Part shown: positions 26,813 to 47,755 of the stretch, piece after piece
Position numbering within the stretch: position 1 is the stretch's first letter
How the letters are laid out: every line of letters starts with the position of its first letter
From: an uncultured Acidobacteriota bacterium
Lineage (GTDB): Bacteria; Acidobacteriota; Thermoanaerobaculia; UBA5066; DATFVB01
Direction: 5' to 3'
Length of the DNA stretch: 64,000 nucleotides
Assembly: GCA_963813155.1 (NCBI GenBank)
Contig: CAWEYG010000003.1
Coordinates: 736,001-800,000 of the forward strand
Program-made: the position numbers and the translations under genes
The notes under the pieces: generated by a model
What the model was told of the DNA's origin: nothing
The model's input: the letters and a program-made list of their open reading frames with translations, nothing else
The model's database searches: none

Positions 26813-27285
26813 CCCTTCTCCGTGATCGTGAACGGCTTCACGTTTTCGTCCCACTCCGTGAGCTTGTCGATGTCCAGGTAGAGCGCCTCGTTTCGCTCGT
26901 AAGTCGAGAGCTCGTAGGTCTTCGTCGTCAGCCAGATCGACTTCGGGACGGTCGGGCACGCTTCTTCGCACAACTGGCAGAACATGCAGCGCTTGAGATC
27001 GAGGTCGAAGCGGTCCAAAACCTTGACCGACTTGGCCGCCTCGTTCTTCTCGTTGTGCCAGTCGATGAAGATGATGTTGATCGGGCACTCGATCGCGCAA
27101 AGAGTGCACTTGATGCACCGCTCCTCGTCGAGCCGGAACATTCCCCGGAAACGGTCCGACGGCTCCTTCTTCTGCTCCGGGTACTGGATCGTCGTCTTCT
27201 TCTTCACGAAGTGGCGGCCCGTGACCATGAGCCCGTCGAACAGGTCGAGCAGAACGATCTTGTCCAGGAACTTTCGGAGGCTCAT
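26809..27285 (-). CDS. nuoI: NADH-quinone oxidoreductase subunit I
   Basis: TIQYPE, two CxxCxxCxxxCP motifs (CIKCTLCAIECP, CMFCQLCEEACP). Confidence 0.95.
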   Translation of the reverse strand: MSLRKFLDKIVLLDLFDGLMVTGRHFVKKKTTIQYPEQKKEPSDRFRGMFRLDEERCIKCTLCAIECPINIIFIDWHNEKNEAAKSVKVLDRFDLDLKRCMFCQLCEEACPTVPKSIWLTTKTYELSTYERNEALYLDIDKLTEWDENVKPFTITEKG

Positions 27286-28418
27286 TTCGCCTCCGCGGCC
27301 GCGAGCGAGCGCCGGAGAACGGAAAGCGCGAACATCGCGGCGAACAGCCCGCCGAACACCCATCCGAGGGCCCGCAGCCCGTGCAGGTACGTCGTGTCCG
27401 CCAGCACGCAGCCGGCGACGACGAGGATGTTCCCGAGGGCGAGCGGGATGAGCCACTTCCAACCGAGGTTCATGAGCTGGTCGAACCGGTAGCGTGGAAA
27501 CGTCGACCGGAACCAGATGTAACAGAAGATGAAGACACCGACCTTCGCGAGGAACCAGACCATTCCGGGCACCGCGCTCAGGAACGGCAGCAGGTGCGGG
27601 AAGGGCGCCAGCCAGCCTCCGAAGAACAGCGTGACGGCGACCGAGGAGACGACGATCATCGCCGTGTACTCGCCGAGAAAATAGAAGGCGAACTTGATTC
27701 CCGAATACTCCGTGTTGAAGCCCGAGACGAGCTCCGACTCCGCCTCCGGAAGGTCGAAGGGATTCCGGTTCGTCTCCGCGACCCCCGACACGAAGTAGAT
27801 GAAGAACGACAGGAGCCCGGGAAAGATGAACCACAGGCGCGCGCGCTCCTGGACTCTCACGATCTCCACGAGCGACATCGAGCGCGACATCAGGAGCACG
27901 GCGACGATGGCGAGCCCCATCGGAACCTCGTAGGAGACGAGCTGCGCCGCGGAGCGAAGCCCCCCGAGGAGCGAGAACTTGTTGTTCGACGCCCAGCCGC
28001 CCAGGATGATGCCGTACACGCCGATCGACGTGATTCCGAGAAGGAACAGGAGCCCGACGTTGACGTCGGCGACCCAGAGCGGCGTCTCGATCCCGGCGAT
28101 CCGGATGCCGGCCCCGAACGGAATGAGCGCGAGGGCCGTCAGGGCCGGGATGACCGAGAGCACCGGGCCGAAGAAGTAGCTGATCTTCTCCGCCTTCGCG
28201 GGCGTCAGGTCCTCTTTCGTCACGAGCTTCAGAAGGTCCGCGAGCCCCTGCAGCGTGCCCTGCGGGCCGACCCGGTTGGGGCCGAGCCTCCCCTGCATGA
28301 AGCCCATGAATCGCCTTTCGGCGAGAACGATGACGAAACCGACGATCGCCGGGACGACGAGGACGATCAGGAGGATCTTGACCGCCGTGAAGAGCGTCTG
28401 CAGGTTCTGCGGGCTCAT
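27282..28418 (-). CDS. nuoH: NADH-quinone oxidoreductase subunit H
   Basis: AERR...[39 protein letters not shown]. Confidence 0.95.
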
Positions 28419-29621
28419 CGGTCCACCTCGCCGAGGACGATGTCGACCGTGCCGATCAGCGCCACGAGGTCCGAGACGAGGTGCCCCCGGGCGAGGCGCG
28501 GCAGCGCCTGCAGATTGATGAGCGAAGGAGGCCTCACGTGCAGGCGGTACGGCTTGTTCGATCCGTTCGAGACGAGGTAGAAGCCGAGTCTCCCCCTTCG
28601 GGGATTCGACCGACGCGTAGACTTCCTCGGCCGGCGGCTTGATGACGCGGGGGACCTTGCCCTTGATCTCGCCCGGCTCGAGCCGGTCGAGGCACTGGCG
28701 GATGATTCGGGCGGACTGGCGCATCTCCGCGACGCGGACGAGGTATCGGTCGTAGGTGTCGCCGTTCTTGCCGGTCGGGACGACGAAGTCGAGCTCGTCG
28801 TAGCACTCGTACGGCTGCGCGCGGCGAAGGTCCCACTCGATGCCCGATCCCCGGATGAGCGGGCCGGTGAGCCCCCATTCGATGCACTCCTCGCCGGAAA
28901 TGACGCCGATTCCGACCGTCCGCTTCTTCCAGATCCGGTTGTTCGTGAGAAGGGTCTCGTAATCGTCCACCCGCGCCGGAAAATCCTCGATGAACTCTGC
29001 GACGGCCTCCGTCCAGTTCGGCGTCAGGTCGAAGGGAAGGCCCCCGATCCGCATGCAGTTCAACGTCAGGCGGGCGCCGCAGTACTCCTCGAAGAAATCG
29101 AGGATCTGCTCCCGCTCCCGGAAGCAGTACCAGAACGGCGTGACCGCGCCGAGATCGATTCCCGACGTCCCGAGCCACACCAGGTGGGACGAGATCCGCT
29201 GCAGCTCGTCGAGGATCACGCGGATCAGCTGGGCGCGGCGCGGGATCTCGACGCCGAGGAGCTTCTCGACGGTCAGGCAGTAGGCGTGATTGCTCGTGGC
29301 GGCCGCGATGTAGTCCATGCGGTCCGTGTGCGGGATCGCCATCGGGTAGGTTTCGGTCTCGAAGAGCTTTTCCGTGCCGCGGTGGAGATAGCCGACGTCC
29401 GGAATCGCGTCCACGATCTTCTCGCCGTCGACCTTGAGAACGATCCGGAGCACGCCGTGCGTCGAGGGGTGCTGCGGCCCGAAGTTCAGCTCCATCTCCG
29501 TGACGTCGAACAGCGTCTTCGGAGCCGCGACCGTCCGGGCCGGGGGGTTGTGCAGCGTCTGCGCCGACTTCGCGCGCGCCGCGAAGTAGGCCGCTTCGTC
29601 CTGTTCGGGGGTGCGGCTCAT
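28415..29621 (-). CDS. nuoD: NADH-quinone oxidoreductase subunit D, apparent frameshift ~28590
   Basis: [28 protein letters not shown]; the tail DIVLGEVDR* is in the adjacent frame. Confidence 0.93.
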
Positions 29622-30847: not shown

Positions 30848-31204
30848 TCACGCCCACTGCAGCGCTCCCCGCTTCCACGCGTAGAAGTAGCCGACGATCA
30901 GGATCGCGAGGAAGAGAACCATCTCGAAGAAGCCGAAGATCGCGAGCTTGTCGAGGAGGATCGCCCACGGAAAGAGGAAGATCGTCTCGACGTCGAAGAC
31001 GACGAAGAGAACGGCGATCAGGAAGTACCTGGCGGAAAAGCGGTAATCGAATGCCGTCGTCGTCGATTCGATTCCGCATTCGTAGGGCTCGCCCTTGGCC
31101 GTATTCGGCGTGCCGTGCTGCAGGAGCCGGGCGGCCACGATCGTCCCGATCGGCAGAGCGGCCGCCAGGACGGCGAAAACCAGAATGAAAAAGTAAGCTT
31201 CCAT
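30848..31204 (-). CDS. nuoA: NADH-quinone oxidoreductase subunit A
   Basis: KGEPYECG, FVVFDVE..FLFPWA, YAWKRGALQW. Confidence 0.97.
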   Translation of the reverse strand: MEAYFFILVFAVLAAALPIGTIVAARLLQHGTPNTAKGEPYECGIESTTTAFDYRFSARYFLIAVLFVVFDVETIFLFPWAILLDKLAIFGFFEMVLFLAILIVGYFYAWKRGALQWA

Positions 31205-31215
31205 TGAGCCTAGGG

Positions 31216-31262
31216 ATTCTCTCGATTCACCTTCCGGATGTCAATTGTGAAAAAAAGCGCAA
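31216..31262 (-). promoter_or_regulatory. Sigma-70 promoter of the nuo operon with an adjacent Rex/CRP-like site
   Basis: Minus strand TTGACA (31244-31239)-N17-GAGAAT; TTGTGAAAAAAAGCGCAA at 31245-31262 abuts the -35. Confidence 0.6.
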
Positions 31263-32413
31263 GCTCGCAACCTGCTTCGACTGAACGAGAACGGAGAGCG
31301 TTTCGCCGAGGCCTTCCGGATCGAGCAGGCGCATCGCCGCGATCTTGTCGCGGTACGCGTCCTGGAAGAGGCCCGACTCGACCAGGAATCGCGAGAGTCG
31401 ACGGATCTCTTCCGACGCGAAGCCTTCCGCTTCTCCCACCGCGATCGAGGTCGTCCCAGTTCACGTGAGCCGTCAGGTCGACGAGCCCGGGATTCTCCAG
31501 CGGGTCGCCGCCGCGGCGTCCTCTCGAGTGCACCGCGAGCGTTCCGCGCGGCCGCGCGTGCGAATGGTAGAGGACCGGCGCGCGGTGGCCGTAGTCGAAG
31601 GCAACGATTCTTCCAACCCGGATCGACCGGCAGAGCGCCCGATGGAGCGGGCCGGCGTCGAGATTGATTTCCGCGATCTGGCCCTCCGCCAGCTCGACGC
31701 CGAAGCGGGCGAGGTAGTCGGAAAGAGGCGAGGGAGCCGGCCAGGATGTCCACGCGAAGCCGTGCCGGTCGAGAGCGCTCCGCGCAGGCTGGTCTTCGAG
31801 ATCCCGAGGGAAAGCGAACTGCGGCCGAGGGTCGAGAAGACTTGCCGAGACGGAGCGCTCGGCTTCCGGCTTGACCGACGAGCCGAGCGTGACCCCCAGC
31901 TCGAAGAGCTCGGCCTTCGCGCATCTGGACTCGGTGAACCGGGAGCGCGTCGTACAGCTCATTCGAGAAAATCCAGCCGGAGATCGATTCCTTCTCGAGC
32001 TGGGACGCGTCCGCGAAGACCCGCTCGGCCCCGCCGCTCCGGACGATCGACTCTCTCCCGCGCGCCGACCGTTCGACCGCCCGGATCCGCGTCCGCCGGG
32101 CGGCGGAAGGATCGACCTCCGCGAGCTCGCGGCGAAAGTCGCGCAGGAAGATCCCCTCGCCGGCCGCGACCTCCACGAAATCGATCGGGCCCTCGAAGCT
32201 GCCCGCGTCGGCCGCGAAGGCGCGCGCGACCGCCCGCGCGAAAAGCGGCGAGATCGACGGCGCGGTCGTGAAGTCTCCTCCCTCGCCGATCGCCGCGCGG
32301 ACAGAGTAGTACCCCTCCTTCGGGTCGTAGAGCGCCGTCTCCATGAAGTCGCGAAAGGAGATCGGTCCCGTTTTCGAAATCCGTTCGGCGAGAATGTCCG
32401 CGCAGCCGGTCAC
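31227..32413 (-). CDS. MidA/NDUFAF7-family SAM-dependent methyltransferase, apparent frameshifts (~31920, ~31440)
   Basis: GPISFRDFMETALYDPKEGYY...GDFTTAP...SNELYDALP, then FDYG...GTL...DLTAHVN and LGETLSVL in successive frames. Confidence 0.88.
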
Positions 32414-32439
32414 CCGAGCTCCTGACGCCGGAGACGGCT

Positions 32440-33684
32440 CTAGCGCGTTCCCGAGACTTTGTAGACGAGGCCCATGCCCGGCGTGCCCTTGTCGGCGAGC
32501 TGCTGCCGGAAAGCGAGCGCTTCGTCGCGGGACGCGAATTCGCCGAGCATTACCCGGAACCACGAGCCCTCGCGGCCGAGATTGACCTCGATGATGCGGA
32601 ACGGCCGGCCGAGCTCCTTCGAAAGGCGGGCCCGGTCCCGTTCCGCATTCTCCCGCTTCTGGTAGGAGGAGAAGTGAATCATGAACGCGGGCGCCTGCCC
32701 GGTCCAGTCGGGCGAGATCATCGAAGAGCCGCGCGATTCCGGTATCGCTGAGCCGCGCATTCGGAGTCGCCGCGGCCGAGCTCGACGGCGCCGGCGCGTC
32801 CGGAGACGCGGGAGCATTCGAGGCACGCGACAGCCCGATCGCACCCGGCGGTTTCGGTTTCGGAGCGTTCGGCGAGACGGTCGAGGGGCTCGCGGTCGTC
32901 CTCGAGCGAAGACTTCGAAGCGGCGAGGCCCGGCGACGGTACCCGGGGAGATGACGCCTCCCGAGGGGGCTGCCCCGCCGGCGGGGGAACGGGCTCGACC
33001 CTCAGCGCGGACGACGTGGACGGAGCTGGGGCCGGCGCAGGGACCCTCTTCGCAACCCCGGGAGCACCGCGGTGGAAAGGCCAGGCGCCGCTCCTCGACC
33101 AGTTTGTAGGCGCCGAAACCGATGGCGACGATCAGAAGAAAAATCAGGACCCGCGTGGCCGAGATGTTCGAGTGCCGTTCTTTCCTCGGCTCGCGGAGGT
33201 AGGCGCGGTAGGGAGGCACCGGCGTCGGAGGAGGCGGCGTTTTCTCCGAGAGCTCGAGGGGACGGACGGGACCGGATGCCGGATTCGCCGGCCCGACGGG
33301 AGGCTCGTAGGACTCGAGGCCCTCCCCGAATCGAGCGCGAAAGGACCTTCTTCGGAGGTCTTCGAGGGCCGCGACGGAGCCGCGATCGTGTCGAACGGAT
33401 CCGGTTCCGGGAAAAGCGCCGCCTTCCGGAGCGCGAGGCGCGCCCTCGCCGGCAAGCTCGGCCGGCAGCAGCCGGATCGCCCGCTCCACGAGCTCGTCGA
33501 ACGGAGCGGAGCGGAAGCCCGTGCGAACGAGCCGAAGCTCCTCCGCGCAGACCTGCTGGGCGGCGCGAAACAACACGGGTTGCTGTTCCGGCGACGCGAG
33601 GAGGCGTTTCGAGAGCTCGGCCACGACGTCCGAGACGGCCGGAATCTTTCGCCTGTTCTGCGAGCTGTCCGAGGGGTCGTCCAT
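32440..33684 (-). CDS. Bitopic membrane protein with C-terminal SPOR domain
   Basis: Helical N-terminus, Pro-rich linker, TM (VLIFLLIVAIGFGAY), second linker, SPOR-like FMIHFSSY..RENAE...WFRVMLGEFASRDEA. The linkers probably contain compensating indels. Confidence 0.82.
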   Translation of the reverse strand: MDDPSDSSQNRRKIPAVSDVVAELSKRLLASPEQQPVLFRAAQQVCAEELRLVRTGFRSAPFDELVERAIRLLPAELAGEGAPRAPEGGAFPGTGSVRHDRGSVAALEDLRRRSFRARFGEGLESYEPPVGPANPASGPVRPLELSEKTPPPPTPVPPYRAYLREPRKERHSNISATRVLIFLLIVAIGFGAYKLVEERRLAFPPRCSRGCEEGPCAGPSSVHVVRAEGRARSPAGGAAPSGGVISPGTVAGPRRFEVFARGRPRAPRPSRRTLRNRNRRVRSGCRVPRMLPRLRTRRRRRARPRRLRMRGSAIPESRGSSMISPDWTGQAPAFMIHFSSYQKRENAERDRARLSKELGRPFRIIEVNLGREGSWFRVMLGEFASRDEALAFRQQLADKGTPGMGLVYKVSGTR

Positions 33685-33687
33685 CGA

Positions 33688-34724
33688 TCAGGCGTTCGAG
33701 CCGGAAAGGCTCTCCCAGTCGGTTTCGGGAGCGTCGGTCGCGATCGCGAGACCTCCGTTCGAGCCCGCGAAGACGGGATCTTCCACCGCCCGCACCCGGC
33801 CTCCCCCCATGTCGCCGAGAGCTTTCTGCAGCGACTCCGCGAGGCCGGGGATCTGCGATCCTCCCCCGCGAGGATGACGTTGTTCCGGACTTTTTCCTGG
33901 AATTCCGGATCGACCCGCGAGATCAGGTCGAGCATCGTCTCGGTGACGGGGGCGAGAAGGCTTTCGCAGGCGCGCCGCATCTCCGACGTGATGTCGACCG
34001 TCGTCGGCTTGCCGTCGACCGGAAAGGTCACCATCACCGGCTTCTTCGGCTCGCCGACGAAGCTCTGCTGCTCTTTCCATTCCCGCACCATGTAGACGGA
34101 GAACCGTCCCTCCGGATGGCGGCTCTTCACGAGCGCGGCGAGCTGCTCGTCGATCGCGTCGCCGGCGTTGGTGAGCGTGCGCTGGTCTTCGTCGGTCGGA
34201 TAGCGGCCGTTCATCACGCAGAAATCCGCCGTGCCCGCGCCGATGTCGATGATCATCGTGTGGAGAAGGGAGTCCATCCCGTACGCGACGGCGAACGGCT
34301 CCGAAACGATCATGAGCGAGCTCGCGATCCCCGAGACGGCGTTGCGCAGGTGCTGCTTCGAAACGCGCAGCGCTTCGGCCGGCACTCCGACGACGGCGAA
34401 AACCTTCTGCCCCTCCTTCGGCTCCGCCAGGGAGATCAGGTGGCCGAGCAGCTCCCGCACGGCAAGCTCGTCCTTTTCGGACCCTTCCTTGATCAGCCCC
34501 CGCTCGAGCGGTCGGTGAAGATCCAGCATCGGGCGGTTCTCGAGCGCTTCGTGGCCGAACAGAATCGCCTTCTTGACGACTTTTCTCGCAACCATGTCCA
34601 CCGGCCATCCGACGTAGCTCTCGACGACGTGCCGCGACCCGTTGGACGCGGAGATGGAGCTGCGGGACGTTCCGAGGTCGATCCCGACGTGCAGAATTTC
34701 GCCTTTCGCGGACTTCGTGCTCAT
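33688..34724 (-). CDS. MamK-like bacterial actin, apparent frameshift in G-run at 33863-33867
   Basis: VGIDLGTS, AVVGVPAEA, VSEPFAVAYG, IIDIGAGTAD, PTDEDQRTLTNAG, KEQQSFVG, EFQEKVRNNVILAG|GGSQI, VEDPVFAG...DWESL. These are actin-fold motifs in the MamK-type rather than MreB-type form. Confidence 0.88.
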
Positions 34725-34754
34725 GAATTCCTTTCCCACGATTCGATCATGGAA

Positions 34755-35819
34755 TCAGCTGCCCGCCGACACGGGCGCCGAAGCGGGCGATCCGCCGCGC
34801 GAGGCCACGTACGATTCGACGCCCGCGCGGAGCGCCTGCGCGATCTCCTGGCGGTACGCCGGCGTCGAGAGGCGCCGCGCTTCGCCGCCGTTGGAAATGC
34901 ACGAAACCTCGGCGAGGATCGCCGGCATCTGTGTGCCGACGAGCACGACGAGCGGCGCCGTCTTCACGCCGCGGTTCTCCAGCTCCGGAGTCACGACGTG
35001 GAGCCTCCGGTACAGCCCGTTCTGCATGTCCTCGGCGAGGCGCCTCGATTCGTCGTGCCGGACGTCCACGTACACGCCTTCGAGCAGCGTCTTGAAATCG
35101 GAGAGCGAGTAGCCCGAGCCGGAGTTTTCGGCATGGGCGAGCCGAAGGGCGGCGGGATCGCGGGAAGTCCCGAGGTAGTACGTCTCCACGCCGAACTGTT
35201 CCGGAAGCGGAATCGAATTGACGTGGATGGAGACGAACAGGTCCGCCTTCTCGCGATTCGCGATCTCGACGCGCTTCTCGAGTGAGACCGACTCGTCCCG
35301 GTCGCGGGTCAGCACGACACCGAACAGGTTCCCCCCGCGCAGCAGCGCCGCGAGGCGGACCGCGATATCGAGGGTGATGTCCTTTTCCGAGAGGCCGCCG
35401 CGAGTCATCGCCCCGGGATCGCCGCCGCCGTGGCCCGGATCCACGACGATCTTCCGGACGGCGAGCTGGAAGAGGTTCGGATCGATCGCCCTCGGAGCCG
35501 GGAGCGATTCGGGCGAGAGCGGCGCCGACGCGGGCGAGACGCCGCCCGAGGCCGGGTGAGCCGCCGCCGGCGCAAGCTCCGCGACCGGATCGGCGACGGC
35601 GGCGCGGCGAGCTTTCCGGCCTCCCCCGGCGGAGGTGGTTCCGATCGAACCCGTGAAGAAAGCCGCGGCCGCGACGATCAACGCGCCGAGGATCCACCCT
35701 CCCGCCCGTTTCGTCTCGCGGGACCGCGACCGGTATCGCGGAACACCTCGGGCAACGTCGAGATTTTCCTGCACGAGATCGCGGATCAACCGCTGTTTGA
35801 GACGGTGATTTCCCTGCAT
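34755..35819 (-). CDS. Membrane-anchored N-acetylmuramoyl-L-alanine amidase (Amidase_3)
   Basis: VVDPGHGG, EKDITL, FVSIHVN, PAILAEV (Zn ligands H/E/H plus catalytic E); TM near residues 42-57. Confidence 0.92.
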   Translation of the reverse strand: MQGNHRLKQRLIRDLVQENLDVARGVPRYRSRSRETKRAGGWILGALIVAAAAFFTGSIGTTSAGGGRKARRAAVADPVAELAPAAAHPASGGVSPASAPLSPESLPAPRAIDPNLFQLAVRKIVVDPGHGGGDPGAMTRGGLSEKDITLDIAVRLAALLRGGNLFGVVLTRDRDESVSLEKRVEIANREKADLFVSIHVNSIPLPEQFGVETYYLGTSRDPAALRLAHAENSGSGYSLSDFKTLLEGVYVDVRHDESRRLAEDMQNGLYRRLHVVTPELENRGVKTAPLVVLVGTQMPAILAEVSCISNGGEARRLSTPAYRQEIAQALRAGVESYVASRGGSPASAPVSAGS

Positions 35820-35920
35820 GGCGCTGCCTTTAGTTTAGAGGCTTCCGCGGGGAGAGTCCACCGGAGCGCGCGAAACGCCGCGGGCGGGCCTCGCAGAGCG
35901 CCGGTCTATAATGCCCGAGG

Positions 35921-37477
35921 ATGACGACGCGTCCGGCGACTTTCGGGGAGCTCAAGGCCAGCGGTTATCGCCCGCGTTCCGTCAAGGACGAGCTGCGGGA
36001 AAACCTGATCGACCGGCTCCGCACCCGCCAGAACGCGTTCCCCGGAATCTATGGCTACGACCACACCGTCCTGCCGATGCTCCACAACGCGATCCTCGCC
36101 CGGCACGACATCATCCTCCTGGGCCTGCGCGGGCAGGCGAAGACGCGCCTGCTGCGGTCGCTCGTCGGCCTTCTCGATCCGGAAATGCCCGTGATCGACG
36201 GAAGCGAGCTCAATGAGAGCCCGTTCGCGCCGATCACGAAATACGGCACGCGACTCGTCGCGGACCGGGGCGATCAGACGCCGATCGCGTGGATGCCGCG
36301 CGAAGAGCGATACCGCGAAAAGCTCGCCACTCCCGACGTGACGATCGCGGATCTGATCGGAGACATCGACCCGATCAAGGCCGCGACGCAGAGACGCTCG
36401 TACTCCGACGAGGAAATCATCCACTTCGGCATCGTCCCGAGGACGAACCGGGGGATCTTCGCGATCAACGAGCTGCCCGACCTGCAACCGCGCATCCAGG
36501 TCGGCCTCCTGAACATCCTGGAAGAGCGAGACCTCCAGATCCGCGGCTTTCCCGTTCGCATCCCGCTCGACATCCTGCTCGTCTTTTCCGCCAACCCCGA
36601 GGACTACACGAACCGCGGCAACATCATCACGCCGCTGAAGGACCGGATCTCGTCGCAGATCCTCACCCACTACCCCGACGACGTGAAGGTCGCGCGGGCG
36701 ATCACCGACCAGGAGGCGTGGGTCGCGCGCGACCCGGGGATCCGCGTCGAGGTCCCCGAGTATTTCAAGGAGCTCGTGGAGAAGATCGCGTTCGCGGCGC
36801 GGGAGTCGGAGTTCGTCGACCAGTCTTCCGGCGTTTCGGCGCGAATGCCCATCTCCGCCCTCGAGATCCTCGTTTCGAACCTCGAGCGCCGCGCGATCGT
36901 CCACGGCGAGCAGTGCGTCCTCCCGAGGCTGTGCGACCTGCTCGCGTGCCTCCCGGCGATCACCGGAAAAGTCGAAGTCGTCTACGAAGGAGAACAGCAG
37001 GGAACGGAAGTCATCGCGAAAAAGCTCATTTCGGTTCCCGTCGCCGAGCTGTTCAAACAGAAGTTCCCTCCCGTCGACTCGGGGCGCAGGACGGAACGGC
37101 GTCCCCCGCCGGCGGAGGAAGAAGAGAATCCGGGCGCCCGGCGCGGCGCGCGGTTCGCGGCCGAAGAGCCGGACAAGCTGAACCCCGTCTACCGCGAAAT
37201 CGTCGACTGGTTCGGCGCCGGAAACTCGATCGACATTTCCGACGAATCCCCGTTCGCGCGCCACTTCCAGGATCTCGAATCGGTGCCGGGCCTGAAGCGA
37301 GTCGCCGAAGAGCACTTCAAGCCGTCGTCGCGCGAGGAAACGGCGCTCGCGATGGAGCTCGTGCTCGAGGGGCTGACGCAGCACCTGAAAATCGCGCGCG
37401 AGGACCTCGACAGCAAGATTTCCTACAAGGAAATGCTCAAGTTCAACCTGGTTCGGCAAAGAACACCGGTCAATTAA
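35921..37477 (+). CDS. ChlI/MoxR-like AAA+ ATPase ('magnesium chelatase'-annotated family)
   Basis: GLRGQAKT Walker A, INELPDL, SANPEDYTNRG...PLKDR. Confidence 0.88.
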   Translation: MTTRPATFGELKASGYRPRSVKDELRENLIDRLRTRQNAFPGIYGYDHTVLPMLHNAILARHDIILLGLRGQAKTRLLRSLVGLLDPEMPVIDGSELNESPFAPITKYGTRLVADRGDQTPIAWMPREERYREKLATPDVTIADLIGDIDPIKAATQRRSYSDEEIIHFGIVPRTNRGIFAINELPDLQPRIQVGLLNILEERDLQIRGFPVRIPLDILLVFSANPEDYTNRGNIITPLKDRISSQILTHYPDDVKVARAITDQEAWVARDPGIRVEVPEYFKELVEKIAFAARESEFVDQSSGVSARMPISALEILVSNLERRAIVHGEQCVLPRLCDLLACLPAITGKVEVVYEGEQQGTEVIAKKLISVPVAELFKQKFPPVDSGRRTERRPPPAEEEENPGARRGARFAAEEPDKLNPVYREIVDWFGAGNSIDISDESPFARHFQDLESVPGLKRVAEEHFKPSSREETALAMELVLEGLTQHLKIAREDLDSKISYKEMLKFNLVRQRTPVN

Positions 37478-38239
37478 ATGACTCCCCATCTTCGCGCGAG
37501 AATCCTCGCGGGCGAACGGTTGCTGGGCTGCTTCCTCACGTGGCCCGTCGGGGGCGCGGCGGAGCTGCTCGGGCTGGCCGAGCTCGATTTCCTCGTCATC
37601 GACGTGGAGCACGGCTTTCACGGCATCGAGTCGATTGAAAATCTCGTTCGCGCGTCGGACACGGCTTCCATCCCCGCGATCGTCCGTCCTCCCCGTTTCG
37701 ACTCCGACGTCATGAGCCGATCGCTCGACGCGGGAGCCGCCGGGGTCCTCGTGCCGCGCGTGGACGGCGCCGCGTCCGCGAAGATCGCCGTCGAGAGCGT
37801 GAAGTTCGCTCCCGAGGGACGCCGCGGTCTCGGCGGAGTGCGCGCGAACCGCTACGGCACCCAGCCCCTCGCCGACTTCGTTCGGGAATCCAACGAGCAG
37901 ACCGTCGTCGCCGTTCAGATCGAGACGCCGGGCGCGCTCGACGACGTGGGGTCGATTGCGGCCCTGCCGGGAGTCGACGTCCTCTTCGTCGGGCCGAACG
38001 ACCTCACGCAGGCGCTCGGGATCCCGGGCCGGATCGACGACCGCCGCTACCACGATGCCCTCGAAAGGATCGCCTCCGCGGCGCGCGACAACGGGCGGGC
38101 CGCGGGGATCATGCTCGGGCGGCGCGAGCAGATCCCGGAGCTCGTCGAGCTCGGGTACCGCTTCTTCACGACGAGCGACCGCACCCTGCTGCTCGAGTCC
38201 GCGCGCGGCTGGCGCGCCGCCGTCGCGCCCGCGCGGTAG
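37478..38239 (+). CDS. HpcH/HpaI aldolase family protein
   Basis: IDVEHG, LDAGAAGVLVP, QIET, LFVGPNDL. Confidence 0.92.
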   Translation: MTPHLRARILAGERLLGCFLTWPVGGAAELLGLAELDFLVIDVEHGFHGIESIENLVRASDTASIPAIVRPPRFDSDVMSRSLDAGAAGVLVPRVDGAASAKIAVESVKFAPEGRRGLGGVRANRYGTQPLADFVRESNEQTVVAVQIETPGALDDVGSIAALPGVDVLFVGPNDLTQALGIPGRIDDRRYHDALERIASAARDNGRAAGIMLGRREQIPELVELGYRFFTTSDRTLLLESARGWRAAVAPAR

Positions 38240-38284
38240 GGCGCTCTCGCCCGGTCTTCTCCACGGGGCGTAGAATCAAATCGG

Positions 38285-39370
38285 ATGCGCTACCGATACC
38301 AGGATTACCCGGTCGATCTCCTCCGCCAGCTCCTGACGATGGACGAGCTGACGAAGCTCTTCTGGCAGCTCGTTTTGCAGACGGGCGGCGACGTCGAGGA
38401 AGCGCTCCGGTGGATGAAGTACCTGCAGGAACGCGGCCTGATCGATCCCGGTATCGACCTCGCGCAGTTCGCAAAGGAACTGGAAAAGCGCGAGCTCGTT
38501 GAAAATCAGGGAGGCAACCTCGTGCTGACCGGCGCCGCGGAGCGGCAGATCCGGCGGCAGGCCCTCGAAGAAGTGTTTTCCTCGCTCAAGAAATCGGGCG
38601 CGGGGTACCACTCGATTCCGCAGTCGGGCGCGGGCGGCGAGACTCTGCCCGAAACGCGGCCGTACGAGTTCGGCGACAACCCCACCTCGATCGACGGCAT
38701 CCGGACGATCGGCAATGCGATCAAGCGCGACATTTCGGATATTGCGCTGAAGGAGGAGGACTTCGAGGTCTACTCCACGGAGCACCTCGCGTCGTGCGCG
38801 ACCGTCATCGCGATCGACATCTCGCATTCGATGGTCCTGTACGGCGAGGACCGGTTCACGCCGGCGAAGAAGGTCGCGCTCGCGATGGTGGAGCTGATCC
38901 AGTCGAAATACCCGAAGGACTCGATCGAGGTCGTGCTCTTCGGCGACGACGCGAAGCGCATCCCGATCTCGGAAATCTCGAAAACGGACGTCGGCCCCTT
39001 CCACACGAACACGAAGGCGGGATTGGCGCTTTCGCGCAAGATCCTGCAGCACAAGAAGAACCCGAACAAGCAGATCTTCATGATCACCGACGGAAAGCCC
39101 TCCGCGATCTTCGACCGGGGAAAGCTCTACAAGAACCCGTTCGGCCTGGATCTGAAGATCGTCAACCGCACGCTCGAGGAGGCGGACGCCTGCCGGCGCG
39201 ACGGCATCACGATCACGACGTTCATGATCGCGACCGATTCGCATCTCGTGGAGTTCGTCGAGAAACTGACGAAAATCAACCGCGGGCGCGCGTACTACGC
39301 CTCGCCGTACAACCTCGCGGAGTTCCTCTTCACCGACTACATCCGGAACCGCAAGCGGTTTTTGCACTGA
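38285..39370 (+). CDS. von Willebrand factor A domain protein, likely partner of the AAA+ ATPase
   Basis: MIDAS motif DISHSM, TNT, MITDGKPS. Confidence 0.9.
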   Translation: MRYRYQDYPVDLLRQLLTMDELTKLFWQLVLQTGGDVEEALRWMKYLQERGLIDPGIDLAQFAKELEKRELVENQGGNLVLTGAAERQIRRQALEEVFSSLKKSGAGYHSIPQSGAGGETLPETRPYEFGDNPTSIDGIRTIGNAIKRDISDIALKEEDFEVYSTEHLASCATVIAIDISHSMVLYGEDRFTPAKKVALAMVELIQSKYPKDSIEVVLFGDDAKRIPISEISKTDVGPFHTNTKAGLALSRKILQHKKNPNKQIFMITDGKPSAIFDRGKLYKNPFGLDLKIVNRTLEEADACRRDGITITTFMIATDSHLVEFVEKLTKINRGRAYYASPYNLAEFLFTDYIRNRKRFLH

Positions 39371-45480: not shown

Positions 45481-45486
45481 TTGAGC

Positions 45487-46029
45487 ATGGCGAGCTCGCG
45501 CCCCCTCGACACGATGCCGTCCGGCTCTGCCGACTTCTTCACGACGCGGCTCGACAACCTCGTCGCGTGGGCGCGCAAGAACTCCCTGTGGCCGCTCCCC
45601 TTCGGGACGGCGTGTTGCGCGATCGAATACATGTCGATCGTCTCCTCGCATTACGACCTCTCCCGGTTCGGCGCGGAGGTCGTGCGGTTTTCTCCCCGGC
45701 AGGCCGATCTTCTGATCGTTGCGGGAACGGTCGTCGACAAACTCGCTCCCGTGCTCCGCAAGATCTACGACCAGATGCCGGAGCCGAAATGGGTGATCTC
45801 GATGGGCGTCTGCGCCTCGTCGGGAGGGTTTTACCGGGCGTACCACGTCGTCCAGGGCATCGACGAGATCGTTCCGGTCGACGTTTACGTCCCCGGCTGC
45901 CCTCCGACGCCGGAAGAGCTGATGTACGGGATCATCCGGCTCCAGGAAGCGATCCAGTCGGGAAAGAAGTCCCGCGACGGCCGCTCGGCGCGCTACGCGG
46001 CGAGCCTTCCCGCGATCCAGGCGCCGTGA
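45487..46029 (+). CDS. nuoB: NADH-quinone oxidoreductase subunit B (second copy)
   Basis: [24 protein letters not shown]. Confidence 0.95.
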
Positions 46030-47755
46030 GCGACACGGCCGTCTCTTCCCTGTCGGCGCCCGCCGAACGGATCCGGCGGAAAATCGCGGAGAAATTCCCC
46101 GATTCGAAAGTCTCCGTCGCAGACCTCGACCTGCCCACCGTCGAGACCGACCCTTCGAGCTGGCCCGCGGTCGCCCGCTTCCTGCGCGACGACCCGGAGC
46201 TGCGGTTCGATCTTCTGCTGGATCTCGCGGGAGTCGACAATCTCCAGCGCCGGGGCCGGCCGAGCCGGTTCGAAGCCGTCGTCGCACTTTTACTCCACTG
46301 TTCGCGACGAGCACGTTCGCGCGAAGGTCATCCTGGACTCCGACAAACCGGGCCTGCCGTCCGTCGTCGACGTCTGGCCCGCGGCGAACTGGTTCGAGCG
46401 CGAGGCCTTCGACCTTTTCGGTTTCGATTTTCCCGGGCATCCGAGGCTGCGTCGCCTGCCTGTGCCACGAGGCGTTCGTCGGCCACGCGCTCCGCAAAGA
46501 CTACGCCGCCGGCCAGCGCTGGATGTGCACGGACGACGACCTCTACGTGCCGTCGCTCGTCGAGCGGGAGAACGAGGAGCAGGACCAGTTCGAGACGGTC
46601 GTCGTCAACCTCGGGCCGTCGCATCCCGCGACGCACGGGACGCTCCGGATCGTCGCGCGCCTCGACGGGGAGCAGATCCTCGAGGCCGAGTCGGAGATCG
46701 GCTACCTGCACCGCTGCTTCGAGAAAATGTCGGAGACGCACACCTGGAACCAGGTCATCCCGTACACGGACCGCCTGAACTACTGCTCGTCGTTCCTCAA
46801 CAACGTCGCCTACTGCAAGACGGTGGAGCGGATGCTCGGGATCGAGGTGCCGGAGCGCGGCGCGCTCATCCGCACGATCCTCTCCGAGTTCTCGCGGGTG
46901 ATGGACCACTGCGTGTGCATCGGCGCGAACCTCGTCGACACGGGAGCGCTCACGAACTTCTGGTATCTCTTCCAGTGCCGCGAGGAGATCTACTCGCTGA
47001 TCGAGGCCTGCTGCGGGGCACGCCTGACCGTCTCCTACGGACGGATCGGCGGCCTCTCGCGCGACGTGCCGGAGGACTTCGTCGAGCGGTGCAAGTCGCT
47101 GCTGAAGTCGATTCCGCCGTTCCTGAACGACGTGGACGGGCTCATCAAGAAGAATCGGATCGTGTGGAACCGTTTTCACGGCGTCGGCGTCGTCTCCCGC
47201 GAGCAGGCGATCGCCTGGGGATTCACCGGCCCGTGCCTGCGCGCTTCCGGAGTCGGGTACGACGTGAGGAAGTCCCGTCCGTACGATTTCTACGACCGCT
47301 TCGACTGGGACGTGCCGGTGCACCGCGACGGCGACAACTATGCCCGCTACCTCGTCCGCATGGAGGAGATGCGGCAGTCCCTTTCGATCATCCGCCAGGC
47401 GCTCGAGGTGTTTCCGAAGTCCGGGCCCGTCGACGCCGCCGACTGGCACGTCGTGCTCCCGCCGAAGAACAACGTGTACCACGACATGGAATCGCTCATC
47501 TATCACTTCAAATGGGTGATGGAGGGGATCCAGGTGCCGGAAGGCGAACGGTACGAATGGTTCGAAGGGGGCAACGGGGAGCTCGGCTTCTACATCGTGT
47601 CGACGGGAGGCGGATCGCCCTACCGCGTCAAGGTCCGGCCGCCCTGCTTTCCCCTGATGGCCGCCTTCGAAAAGATCATCGCGGGCAGCCGCATTTCGGA
47701 CGCCGTCGCGACGCTCGGGACGCTGAACATCATCGCCGGGGAACTGGACAGATGA
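46026..47755 (+). CDS. nuoCD: Fused NuoC/D (second copy), apparent frameshifts ~46285 and ~46460
   Basis: [22 protein letters not shown], then GHALRKDY continuing in frame into [20 protein letters not shown]...IAGELDR. Confidence 0.88.

Follow-up and report, generated by a model that had tools for sequence, protein, structure and literature searches.

Bacterial actins have known jobs in wall synthesis (MreB), division (FtsA), plasmids (ParM), and magnetosomes (MamK), and MamK is known to polymerize. Here, we analyzed a stretch of 64,000 nt from an uncultured Acidobacteriota bacterium (assembly GCA_963813155.1, contig CAWEYG010000003.1, positions 736,001 to 800,000; "the window" refers to this whole stretch), in which three co-oriented genes, all on the (−) strand, specify an Amidase_3 enzyme with a membrane anchor, an actin of the MamK family, and a membrane protein with a terminal SPOR domain (Table 1). 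The gaps of 30 and 3 nt between them, described earlier by a reading of the DNA letters alone (the sequence-only reading), match the coordinates of the open reading frames (ORFs). We consider it moderately probable that this cassette tethers a peptidoglycan amidase to an actin-like filament, which would direct wall cleavage to chosen places.

The E. coli septal loop of FtsA, FtsN, and AmiA/B/C consists of an actin-family protein, a bitopic SPOR protein, and an amidase that makes the SPOR ligand; specifically, SPOR domains bind the denuded glycan made by amidases, and the cytoplasmic tail of FtsN binds FtsA. The cassette has the same logic and parts list, but its actin is MamK-like and stands beside the genome's own FtsA, its amidase is itself membrane anchored and has a predicted actin-binding tail, the N-terminal domain of its SPOR protein is an unrelated three-helix unit, and all of the genes are grouped in a single cassette. 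MreB with RodZ, and B. subtilis MreBH with the hydrolase LytE, are actin homologues that organize wall enzymes via a membrane-spanning link. The same kind of organizing role is proposed for the cassette actin, which, however, belongs to another actin family and has no mreCD or rodA neighbors, and here the link would be the enzyme's own tail. In ParM/ParR, a short partner helix in the groove between actin subdomains IA and IIA gives end-tracking. A short partner helix is likewise predicted in the IA/IIA groove of the cassette actin, but the cassette has no centromere or DNA-binding partner, is chromosomal, and would carry a periplasmic enzyme as its cargo.

Among MamK-family proteins, MamK of Magnetospirillum (5ljw, 5jyg, and 5ljv) is the best family match of the window actin, with shared nucleotide-binding motifs and a similar length. 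In contrast to MamK, the window actin falls into a separate clade, scores below the family cut-off, lies outside any mam operon, and has an amidase rather than MamJ-type adaptors as its constant partner, and several groove residues differ (e.g., positions 152, 172–173, 330, and 334). BeeR, a three-stranded tubular actin from Verrucomicrobiota (8r2n), is likewise a non-magnetotactic MamK relative. Its report states that the function of BeeR, and of MamK's closest non-magnetotactic relatives, is unknown, and gives a disordered N-terminal extension of 30–50 residues as the hallmark of the BeeR family (PMC11929497). The window actin, which has only ~10 residues before GIDLGTS and so lacks an extension as described there, belongs to a different clade from BeeR. 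A full-text literature search found no paper linking a MamK-like actin to an amidase or SPOR protein, although subscription journals were mostly outside its scope and an earlier mention is possible. The actin-guided envelope enzyme is a known kind of system, in which a MamK-family actin with a hydrolase cargo bearing its own adaptor helix would be new.

Profile searches placed the actin in the MamK family. Its N-terminal 285 aa scored 321 bits on the NCBIfam MamK model (NF040964), 188 bits on BeeR, and 46 bits on MreB, and its last 60 aa, which lie in another frame, added 45 bits on the MamK model; scored as two pieces on NF040964, the protein reaches 326.6 + 45.1 bits (~372 bits summed vs a cut-off of 400). 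MreB models gave 46–50 bits, with neither NCBIfam MreB cut-off reached (45.7 vs 293 bits and 31.7 vs 366 bits), and the BeeR cut-off (NF053558) was not reached either (188 vs 530 bits). In a search of Protein Data Bank structures, an intact orthologue matched MamK 5ljw with 248 bits, gapless over 333 residues (8 to 340), compared with 162 bits for BeeR and 47 bits for MreB. The phosphate-1, phosphate-2, and adenosine motifs and the catalytic Glu of an actin-fold ATPase are all present and collinear with the MamK structures. GIDLGTS, DIGAGT, AGGGS, and the catalytic Glu of VSEPF are invariant across 17 orthologues, and the motifs listed by the sequence-only reading are legible in the translations. 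Public sources name the orthologues "rod shape-determining protein MreB."

A full-library search returned 197 cluster representatives at E ≤ 1e-30. The phylogeny is a quick maximum-likelihood tree of 83 rows with the genome's own MreB as outgroup; its rows comprise 69 representatives whose actin domains are nearly full, a single partial one that was added, 11 sequences from loci, a cut MamK, and MreB. Of the 81 representatives with ≥320 aa, 10 were excluded because their domains are partial. The actin orthologues form one clade (Shimodaira–Hasegawa-like approximate likelihood-ratio test [SH-aLRT], 100), with representative P0123 as its sister (support 92); P0123 scores 425 bits on NCBIfam MamK, a model whose cut-off was exceeded in none of 41 related genomes. 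The proteins designated MamK or MamK-like by their sources (those of Paramagnetospirillum, Magnetococcales, a deltaproteobacterium, and an uncultured magnetotactic bacterium) fall into a separate clade (98), and the BeeR-type proteins make up a third (100). The backbone of the tree is unresolved, and, therefore, no order of origin can be taken from it. The actin represents a subfamily sister to magnetosome MamK and is neither MamK itself nor MreB. The sequence-only reading had recognized a MamK-like rather than MreB-like protein and regarded a grouping with MreB as fatal to its proposal; the family assignment stands in both the structure search and the tree, but, with a clade of its own and a sub-cut-off score, the protein is not MamK itself.

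Three mam families were searched with family models in the 90.8%-complete genome. There was no match to MamI, the best MamP score was 31 bits (cut-off, 300), and the best MamQ score was 90 bits (cut-off, 250), a level similar to that in control genomes. With none of the three above its cut-off, the genome gave no sign of the magnetosome island elsewhere that the sequence-only reading had named as evidence against itself. In the wider MamK family, P0201 (768 aa; source name "Magnetosome protein MamK [uncultured bacterium]") combines a full FtsZ (351 bits, TIGR00065) and a MamK domain (446 bits) in one natural fusion. Fourteen further representatives (P0133–P0149 and P0157; 523–1232 aa) have a C-terminal MamK-family domain after a long N-terminal extension and fall on one side of a tree branch (support 90).

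In the window, the actin frame is broken within a run of five G, where one missing G had been suspected. Contigs of all four public soil runs examined (three studies) have one extra base behind position 33862, at full depth in each, which confirms the missing base. A complete-genome relative reads ILAGGGSQIPGL across the frameshift point, the orthologues are intact at 338–343 aa in relatives, and those of 19/19 relatives match the MamK model without interruption. Since the contigs of all four runs carry the missing base, the gene is intact in nature, and the frameshift is a homopolymer assembly error in the window.

Further analysis revealed that the amidase and actin genes form a conserved pair. 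The actin was found in 20 of the 41 related genomes that make up our close-relative set (4/6 and 15/17 in two families and 0/17 in a third). The amidase gene lies upstream of it in 19/19 loci of relatives, and the SPOR gene lies downstream in 18/19, the 19th locus being cut. One locus (L009) comes from an unpublished genome (G002), without which the counts are 18/18 for the amidase and 17/18 for the SPOR gene. A scan of 185,579 species genomes gave 484 stretches with relatives, and among the best 80, with neighbors called by profiles built from the close-relative set, the amidase gene immediately precedes the actin gene on the same strand in 78, and upstream DNA in the remaining two amounts to ≤85 nt. 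For the sister clade, whose actin is ~53% identical and one of whose members is labeled Nitrospira, a metagenome scan gave 208 relatives, and an Amidase_3 gene is directly upstream in 74 of the best 80 loci, with the other six having ≤345 nt of upstream DNA. In both sets, each exception is truncated by the end of its contig. In many loci, the stop and start codons overlap or abut.

In comparison, the surroundings of the cassette vary. The window's own neighbors (MidA-like, nuoA/B, AAA_5, HpcH, and VWA genes) recur in only 1–2 of the 80 species-genome loci, MidA together with nuo neighbors is common to only 2/80, and the flanks differ outside the window's family. Crude ORF clustering, with noisy gene calling in GC-rich DNA, found no further widely shared cassette gene. 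In an even sample of the phylum, the actin was present at E ≤ 1e-60 in 32/401 genomes, 27 of which belong to the window's class. The cassette is chromosomal in complete genomes, e.g., on the 3.84-Mb chromosome at locus L028.

The SPOR gene follows the actin in 60/62 Acidobacteriota-labeled loci from the species genomes; one of the two exceptions has only 638 nt of downstream DNA, and the other (L105) is truly without it. The neighborhood counts inside and outside this phylum therefore indicate that the conserved unit is amidase plus actin and that the SPOR gene is a lineage-specific third part. Thus, the order of genes proposed by the sequence-only reading is conserved in relatives, and its three-gene module holds in part: the amidase–actin core is widely kept, but the SPOR gene is limited to Acidobacteriota (60/62 vs 0/18 loci). 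Metagenome-assembled genomes (MAGs) labeled Rokuibacteriota/Methylomirabilota contain the amidase–actin pair at L055, L062, L067–L070, L074, and L076, as well as at L082–L084, L087, L098, and L100. Their actins are 76–78% identical to those of Acidobacteriota and are interleaved with them in the tree, which suggests either horizontal transfer of the cassette between phyla or mislabeled bins.

The amidase scores 164 bits on Pfam Amidase_3 (PF01520; residues 124–335), and a Foldseek fold search with its AlphaFold2 (AF2) model (mean predicted local distance difference test [pLDDT], 72.8) returned AmiC2, E. coli AmiA, CwlD, AmiB, and AmiC at the top (E-values of 5e-17 to 5e-16; template-modeling scores to target of 0.72–0.91), with one matched entry titled AmiB bound to the EnvC LytM domain. 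The closest solved relative in sequence is E. coli AmiA. H130, E145, H199, and E304 (window numbering) are invariant in the amidases, and by comparison with AmiC and CwlV, we take them to be the zinc/catalytic ligands. The catalytic domain includes an AmiA/B/C-type insert: E. coli AmiA (8c2o) aligns unbroken across it, whereas the alignment of short amidases (5emi) breaks into two parts on either side of it, and it is modeled as helices 222–232 and 239–276 with low confidence around 234–240. In AmiA/B/C, this insert region mediates autoinhibition, which LytM factors relieve by activating the enzyme. Against the NCBIfam AmiA, AmiB, and AmiC equivalogs, the window amidase scored 100–115 bits (cut-offs, 400–700 bits), far too low for an orthologue of AmiA/B/C.

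In the model, the amidase runs from an N-terminal helix through a basic stretch, a membrane helix, and a ~55-residue disordered linker (pLDDT, 35–46) to the catalytic domain. By the positive-inside rule, we infer that the N-terminus is in the cytoplasm and the catalytic domain in the periplasm. The N-terminal helix has the motif R-L-K-x-x-hydrophobic-hydrophobic-R-x-hydrophobic-hydrophobic-x-E-N-hydrophobic, in which E and N do not vary among 17 sequences from three labeled phyla, and a matching tail motif occurs in the sister clade (e.g., RLKNAILRGVYDDNL). That a periplasmic enzyme has conserved its cytoplasmic tail points to a partner in the cytoplasm.

The complex of an intact actin with residues 1–40 of its own amidase was predicted from alignments of 17 sequences each. 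The three runs gave interface scores (ipSAE) of 0.85, 0.85, and 0.84, while the best of three controls reached 0.01, and ≥88% of contacts recurred across the runs. In a calibration, 58/80 solved complexes and 2/110 mismatched pairs reached the mark, counts that hold only roughly because author-supplied alignments were used. Tail residues 3–24 are predicted to contact actin residues 121–125, 136–152, 171–173, and 326–338, which, by our reading of collinearity with MamK, would form the groove between subdomains IA and IIA. Within either amidase-linked clade, the actin positions at the interface hardly vary, and they differ between the clades as well as from magnetosome MamKs and BeeR. The N-terminal helix of the amidase is thus predicted to dock on the actin, and coupling of a cytoplasmic N-terminus to the filament, which the sequence-only reading had postulated for both membrane proteins, finds in silico support for the amidase tail (0.85 vs 0.01).

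In the mechanism that we favor, the MamK-family ATPase would polymerize under the inner membrane, as its family suggests, and the single-pass amidase would dock via its N-terminal helix in the IA/IIA groove. The position or dynamics of the cytoplasmic filament would in turn set where the periplasmic domain removes peptide stems from the glycan. The catalytic domain, given its AmiA/B/C-type insert, is probably autoinhibited and would need an activator at the site of action. In Thermoanaerobaculia-type Acidobacteriota, the third gene would add an FtsN-like SPOR protein, whose binding to denuded glycan would concentrate the system where it is already active. The likely role is separation of daughter cells or another form of localized wall remodeling, beside the ordinary MreB and FtsA systems. 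The source genome (3.81 Mb in 23 contigs, 90.8% complete) encodes its own MreB (488 bits on PF06723) on a contig other than that of the cassette, its own FtsA (130 bits), and, by genome profile search, further Amidase_3 genes and three more SPOR proteins. Because it keeps all of these, the cassette is an added system and not a replacement. The closest relatives of the genome are labeled Acidobacteriota or Thermoanaerobaculia and are all metagenome assembled.

Several findings weigh against this interpretation. The SPOR gene follows the actin in none of the non-Acidobacteriota loci from the species genomes (0/15 labeled Rokuibacteriota/Methylomirabilota, 0/1 Myxococcota, and 0/2 unlabeled; 0/18 overall) and in none of four loci from other Acidobacteriota classes (amidase–actin pair in 4/4), and it is missing in 79/80 sister-clade loci, with a single weak hit. 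With the gene missing from these loci, a write-and-read loop, in which the amidase marks the glycan and the SPOR protein recognizes the mark, cannot be the core mechanism. The actin remains under the 400-bit NCBIfam MamK cut-off, as do the orthologues of its relatives (348–390 bits), and all carriers found are uncultured MAGs. There is no LytM activator gene within the cassette, and five Peptidase_M23 genes are found elsewhere in the genome. Binding of the tail rests on a model's confidence; its pLDDT in the complex is modest (65–66), and the controls were unrelated proteins rather than other amphipathic helices. Finally, actins in general receive partners in this groove, which is also part of the longitudinal filament contacts, and because of this double use, the tail may bind only monomers or filament ends.

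An alternative is a signaling or control device, in which the tail caps, sequesters, or senses actin and the assembly state in the cytoplasm switches the amidase on or off across the membrane without positioning it. In other actins, capping or monomer-binding partners occupy the groove, as does the neighboring subunit. The location of the predicted site in an inter-subdomain groove, the putative regulatory insert in the amidase, and the missing activator in the cassette would all fit such a device and positioning alike. However, a short helix, a single membrane helix, and a ~55-residue disordered linker make a poor allosteric path, and we regard this alternative as unlikely. We give still less credence to co-transcribed neighbors that do not interact, with the actin performing an unrelated cytoplasmic job such as organelle or chromosome positioning. 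Binding is indeed only predicted, and MamK-family relatives without an assigned function exist, e.g., BeeR, as its report states (PMC11929497). Nonetheless, adjacency is maintained in 78/80 and 74/80 loci of two clades with actins only ~53% identical while the surroundings change, a periplasmic enzyme has kept a conserved cytoplasmic tail, and the complex scored 0.85 vs 0.01 for the best control.

Two further explanations seem much less probable. An actin that is magnetosome MamK in the strict sense, or left over from a magnetosome island, would agree with its best family match and its gapless alignment to the Magnetospirillum MamK structures, but we consider this extremely improbable, given a clade apart from the named MamKs (100 and 98 in the quick tree), no MamI match and MamP and MamQ scores far below their cut-offs (31/300 and 90/250 bits) in the 90.8%-complete genome, and no mam-like neighbors in 160 loci. 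A decaying cassette with an actin pseudogene in this organism, to which the frameshift in the window sequence might point, is very improbable, as the missing base is present in the contigs of 4/4 runs, other window genes show frame breaks typical of assembly indels, and the orthologues are intact in 19/19 relatives.

An extension of the tethered-amidase interpretation, which we put forward as a doubtful conjecture, is that steering an amidase is an ancestral and widespread function of the MamK family, from which the magnetosome cytoskeleton later branched off. The amidase tail would ride the growing filament end in the manner of ParM/ParR end-tracking, so that polymerization would drag the wall-cutting enzyme along a defined track, and, in Acidobacteriota, the SPOR reader would lock the machine onto freshly stripped glycan. 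If true, the cassette would form a compact feedback loop that resembles division and works independently of FtsZ, FtsA, and FtsN. The tethering of an amidase to an actin-like filament would itself be a new mode of spatial control over a potentially lethal enzyme. Gene order ties a large, as yet unnamed branch of the MamK family to a wall hydrolase, which would provide orphan actins with a function and offers a concrete and testable one, peptide to groove, for the non-magnetosome relatives of MamK. It also suggests a candidate precursor of the magnetosome cytoskeleton. The hosts belong to abundant, hardly cultured soil phyla.

The third protein has an FtsN-like layout. It is bitopic and ends in a SPOR domain above the gathering score (44.5 bits on Pfam PF05036 vs a cut-off of 21; 47.6 bits in the genome search), a low-complexity linker separates the membrane helix from that domain, and the orthologues have the same layout. 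The N-terminal domain of ~60 residues is conserved, with a core pLDDT of 86–91 in the AF2 model of an orthologue. A Pfam search with four orthologues gave no match to it at E ≤ 1 (only SPOR and two sub-threshold DUF rows were returned), and Foldseek gave none at E ≤ 0.001. The domain (L030:7008–7322) weakly resembles the N-terminal domain of SelA (3wcn and 3w1h), a match that is not significant (probability ~0.7; E ~1; root-mean-square deviation of 2.5–2.9 Å over 62–63 columns).

Table 1. Coordinates (in the window) of the cassette genes, their domains, and the frameshift site
Feature	Position	Strand	Evidence
Gene for membrane-anchored N-acetylmuramoyl-L-alanine amidase (354 aa)	34755..35819	−	ORF; Pfam Amidase_3; fold search
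Amidase N-terminal helix, putatively cytoplasmic (residues 2–23)	35751..35816	−	AF2 helix H2–23; conservation
Amidase membrane helix (residues 43–61), preceded by a basic stretch	35637..35693	−	Hydropathy maximum 1.92; model helix H33–57
Amidase_3 catalytic domain, putatively periplasmic (residues 124–335), including an AmiA/B/C-type insert of ~60 residues	34815..35450	−	Pfam; AmiA alignment
Gene for MamK-family actin-like ATPase (~345 aa after frameshift read-through)	33688..34724	−	NCBIfam MamK; intact orthologues
Homopolymer run lacking one base, causing the apparent frameshift	33863..33867	−	Sequence; contigs of 4/4 runs
Gene for bitopic membrane protein (414 aa) with cytoplasmic helical N-domain and C-terminal SPOR domain	32440..33684	−	ORF; Pfam SPOR
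Three-helix cytoplasmic N-domain of the SPOR protein (~residues 14–74)	33463..33645	−	Alignments; AF2 model of orthologue
Membrane helix of the SPOR protein (residues 174–192), preceded by basic residues	33109..33165	−	Hydropathy maximum 2.21
SPOR domain (residues 334–400)	32485..32685	−	Pfam PF05036

In the window, the SPOR ORF has an Arg-rich middle section, and, relative to the window, the run contigs have 1-nt deletions at 32757 and 32902 (X1 and X2) and at 33407 (X1, X2, and X4). The central linker of the protein is probably misframed in the window, and the N-domain, membrane helix, and SPOR domain are all readable in the window sequence. A version of the gene rebuilt with the three 1-nt deletions was rejected, as internal stops arise around the membrane helix; the run contigs over this gene are short, and none spans it entirely.

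Other frame breaks in the window, a split Methyltransf_28 gene and a merged NuoD–NuoH ORF, are typical of assembly indels. The former, a MidA-like gene directly downstream of the SPOR gene at 31213–32563 (−), is divided over two frames, with model positions 15–117 in one and 129–237 in the other, which is probably another assembly indel. The latter, an ORF of 779 aa at 27285–29621 (−), joins a truncated NuoD (positions 1–185 of 271 of the 49-kDa model) to NuoH and is probably a frame error as well.

The scan of 41 larger ORFs of the window detected no mre, rodA, or mam gene, and, within this range, the absence of such genes reported by the sequence-only reading holds. A promoter and terminator scan of 31000–36100 found no site between the three cassette genes; it yielded one promoter-like and three terminator-like sites, the latter count not exceeding that in shuffled sequences. 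A sigma-70-like promoter matching at 10 of 12 positions (31216–31244, −) and a terminator-like hairpin with a T run (31259–31275) are situated between the MidA-like gene and nuoA (−), which suggests a transcript boundary at 31216–31275 and none inside the cassette. No RNA data set was among the 24 runs listed. Divergent from the cassette, at 35921–39367 (+), are genes for an AAA_5 (MoxR-like) ATPase, an HpcH/HpaI aldolase, and a VWA-domain protein, a trio that adjoins the cassette in only 1/80 loci (L028, from the window's own family). A second nuoB and nuoD pair is located 16 kb away at 45481–47752 (+), and the genome may have two complex I sets.

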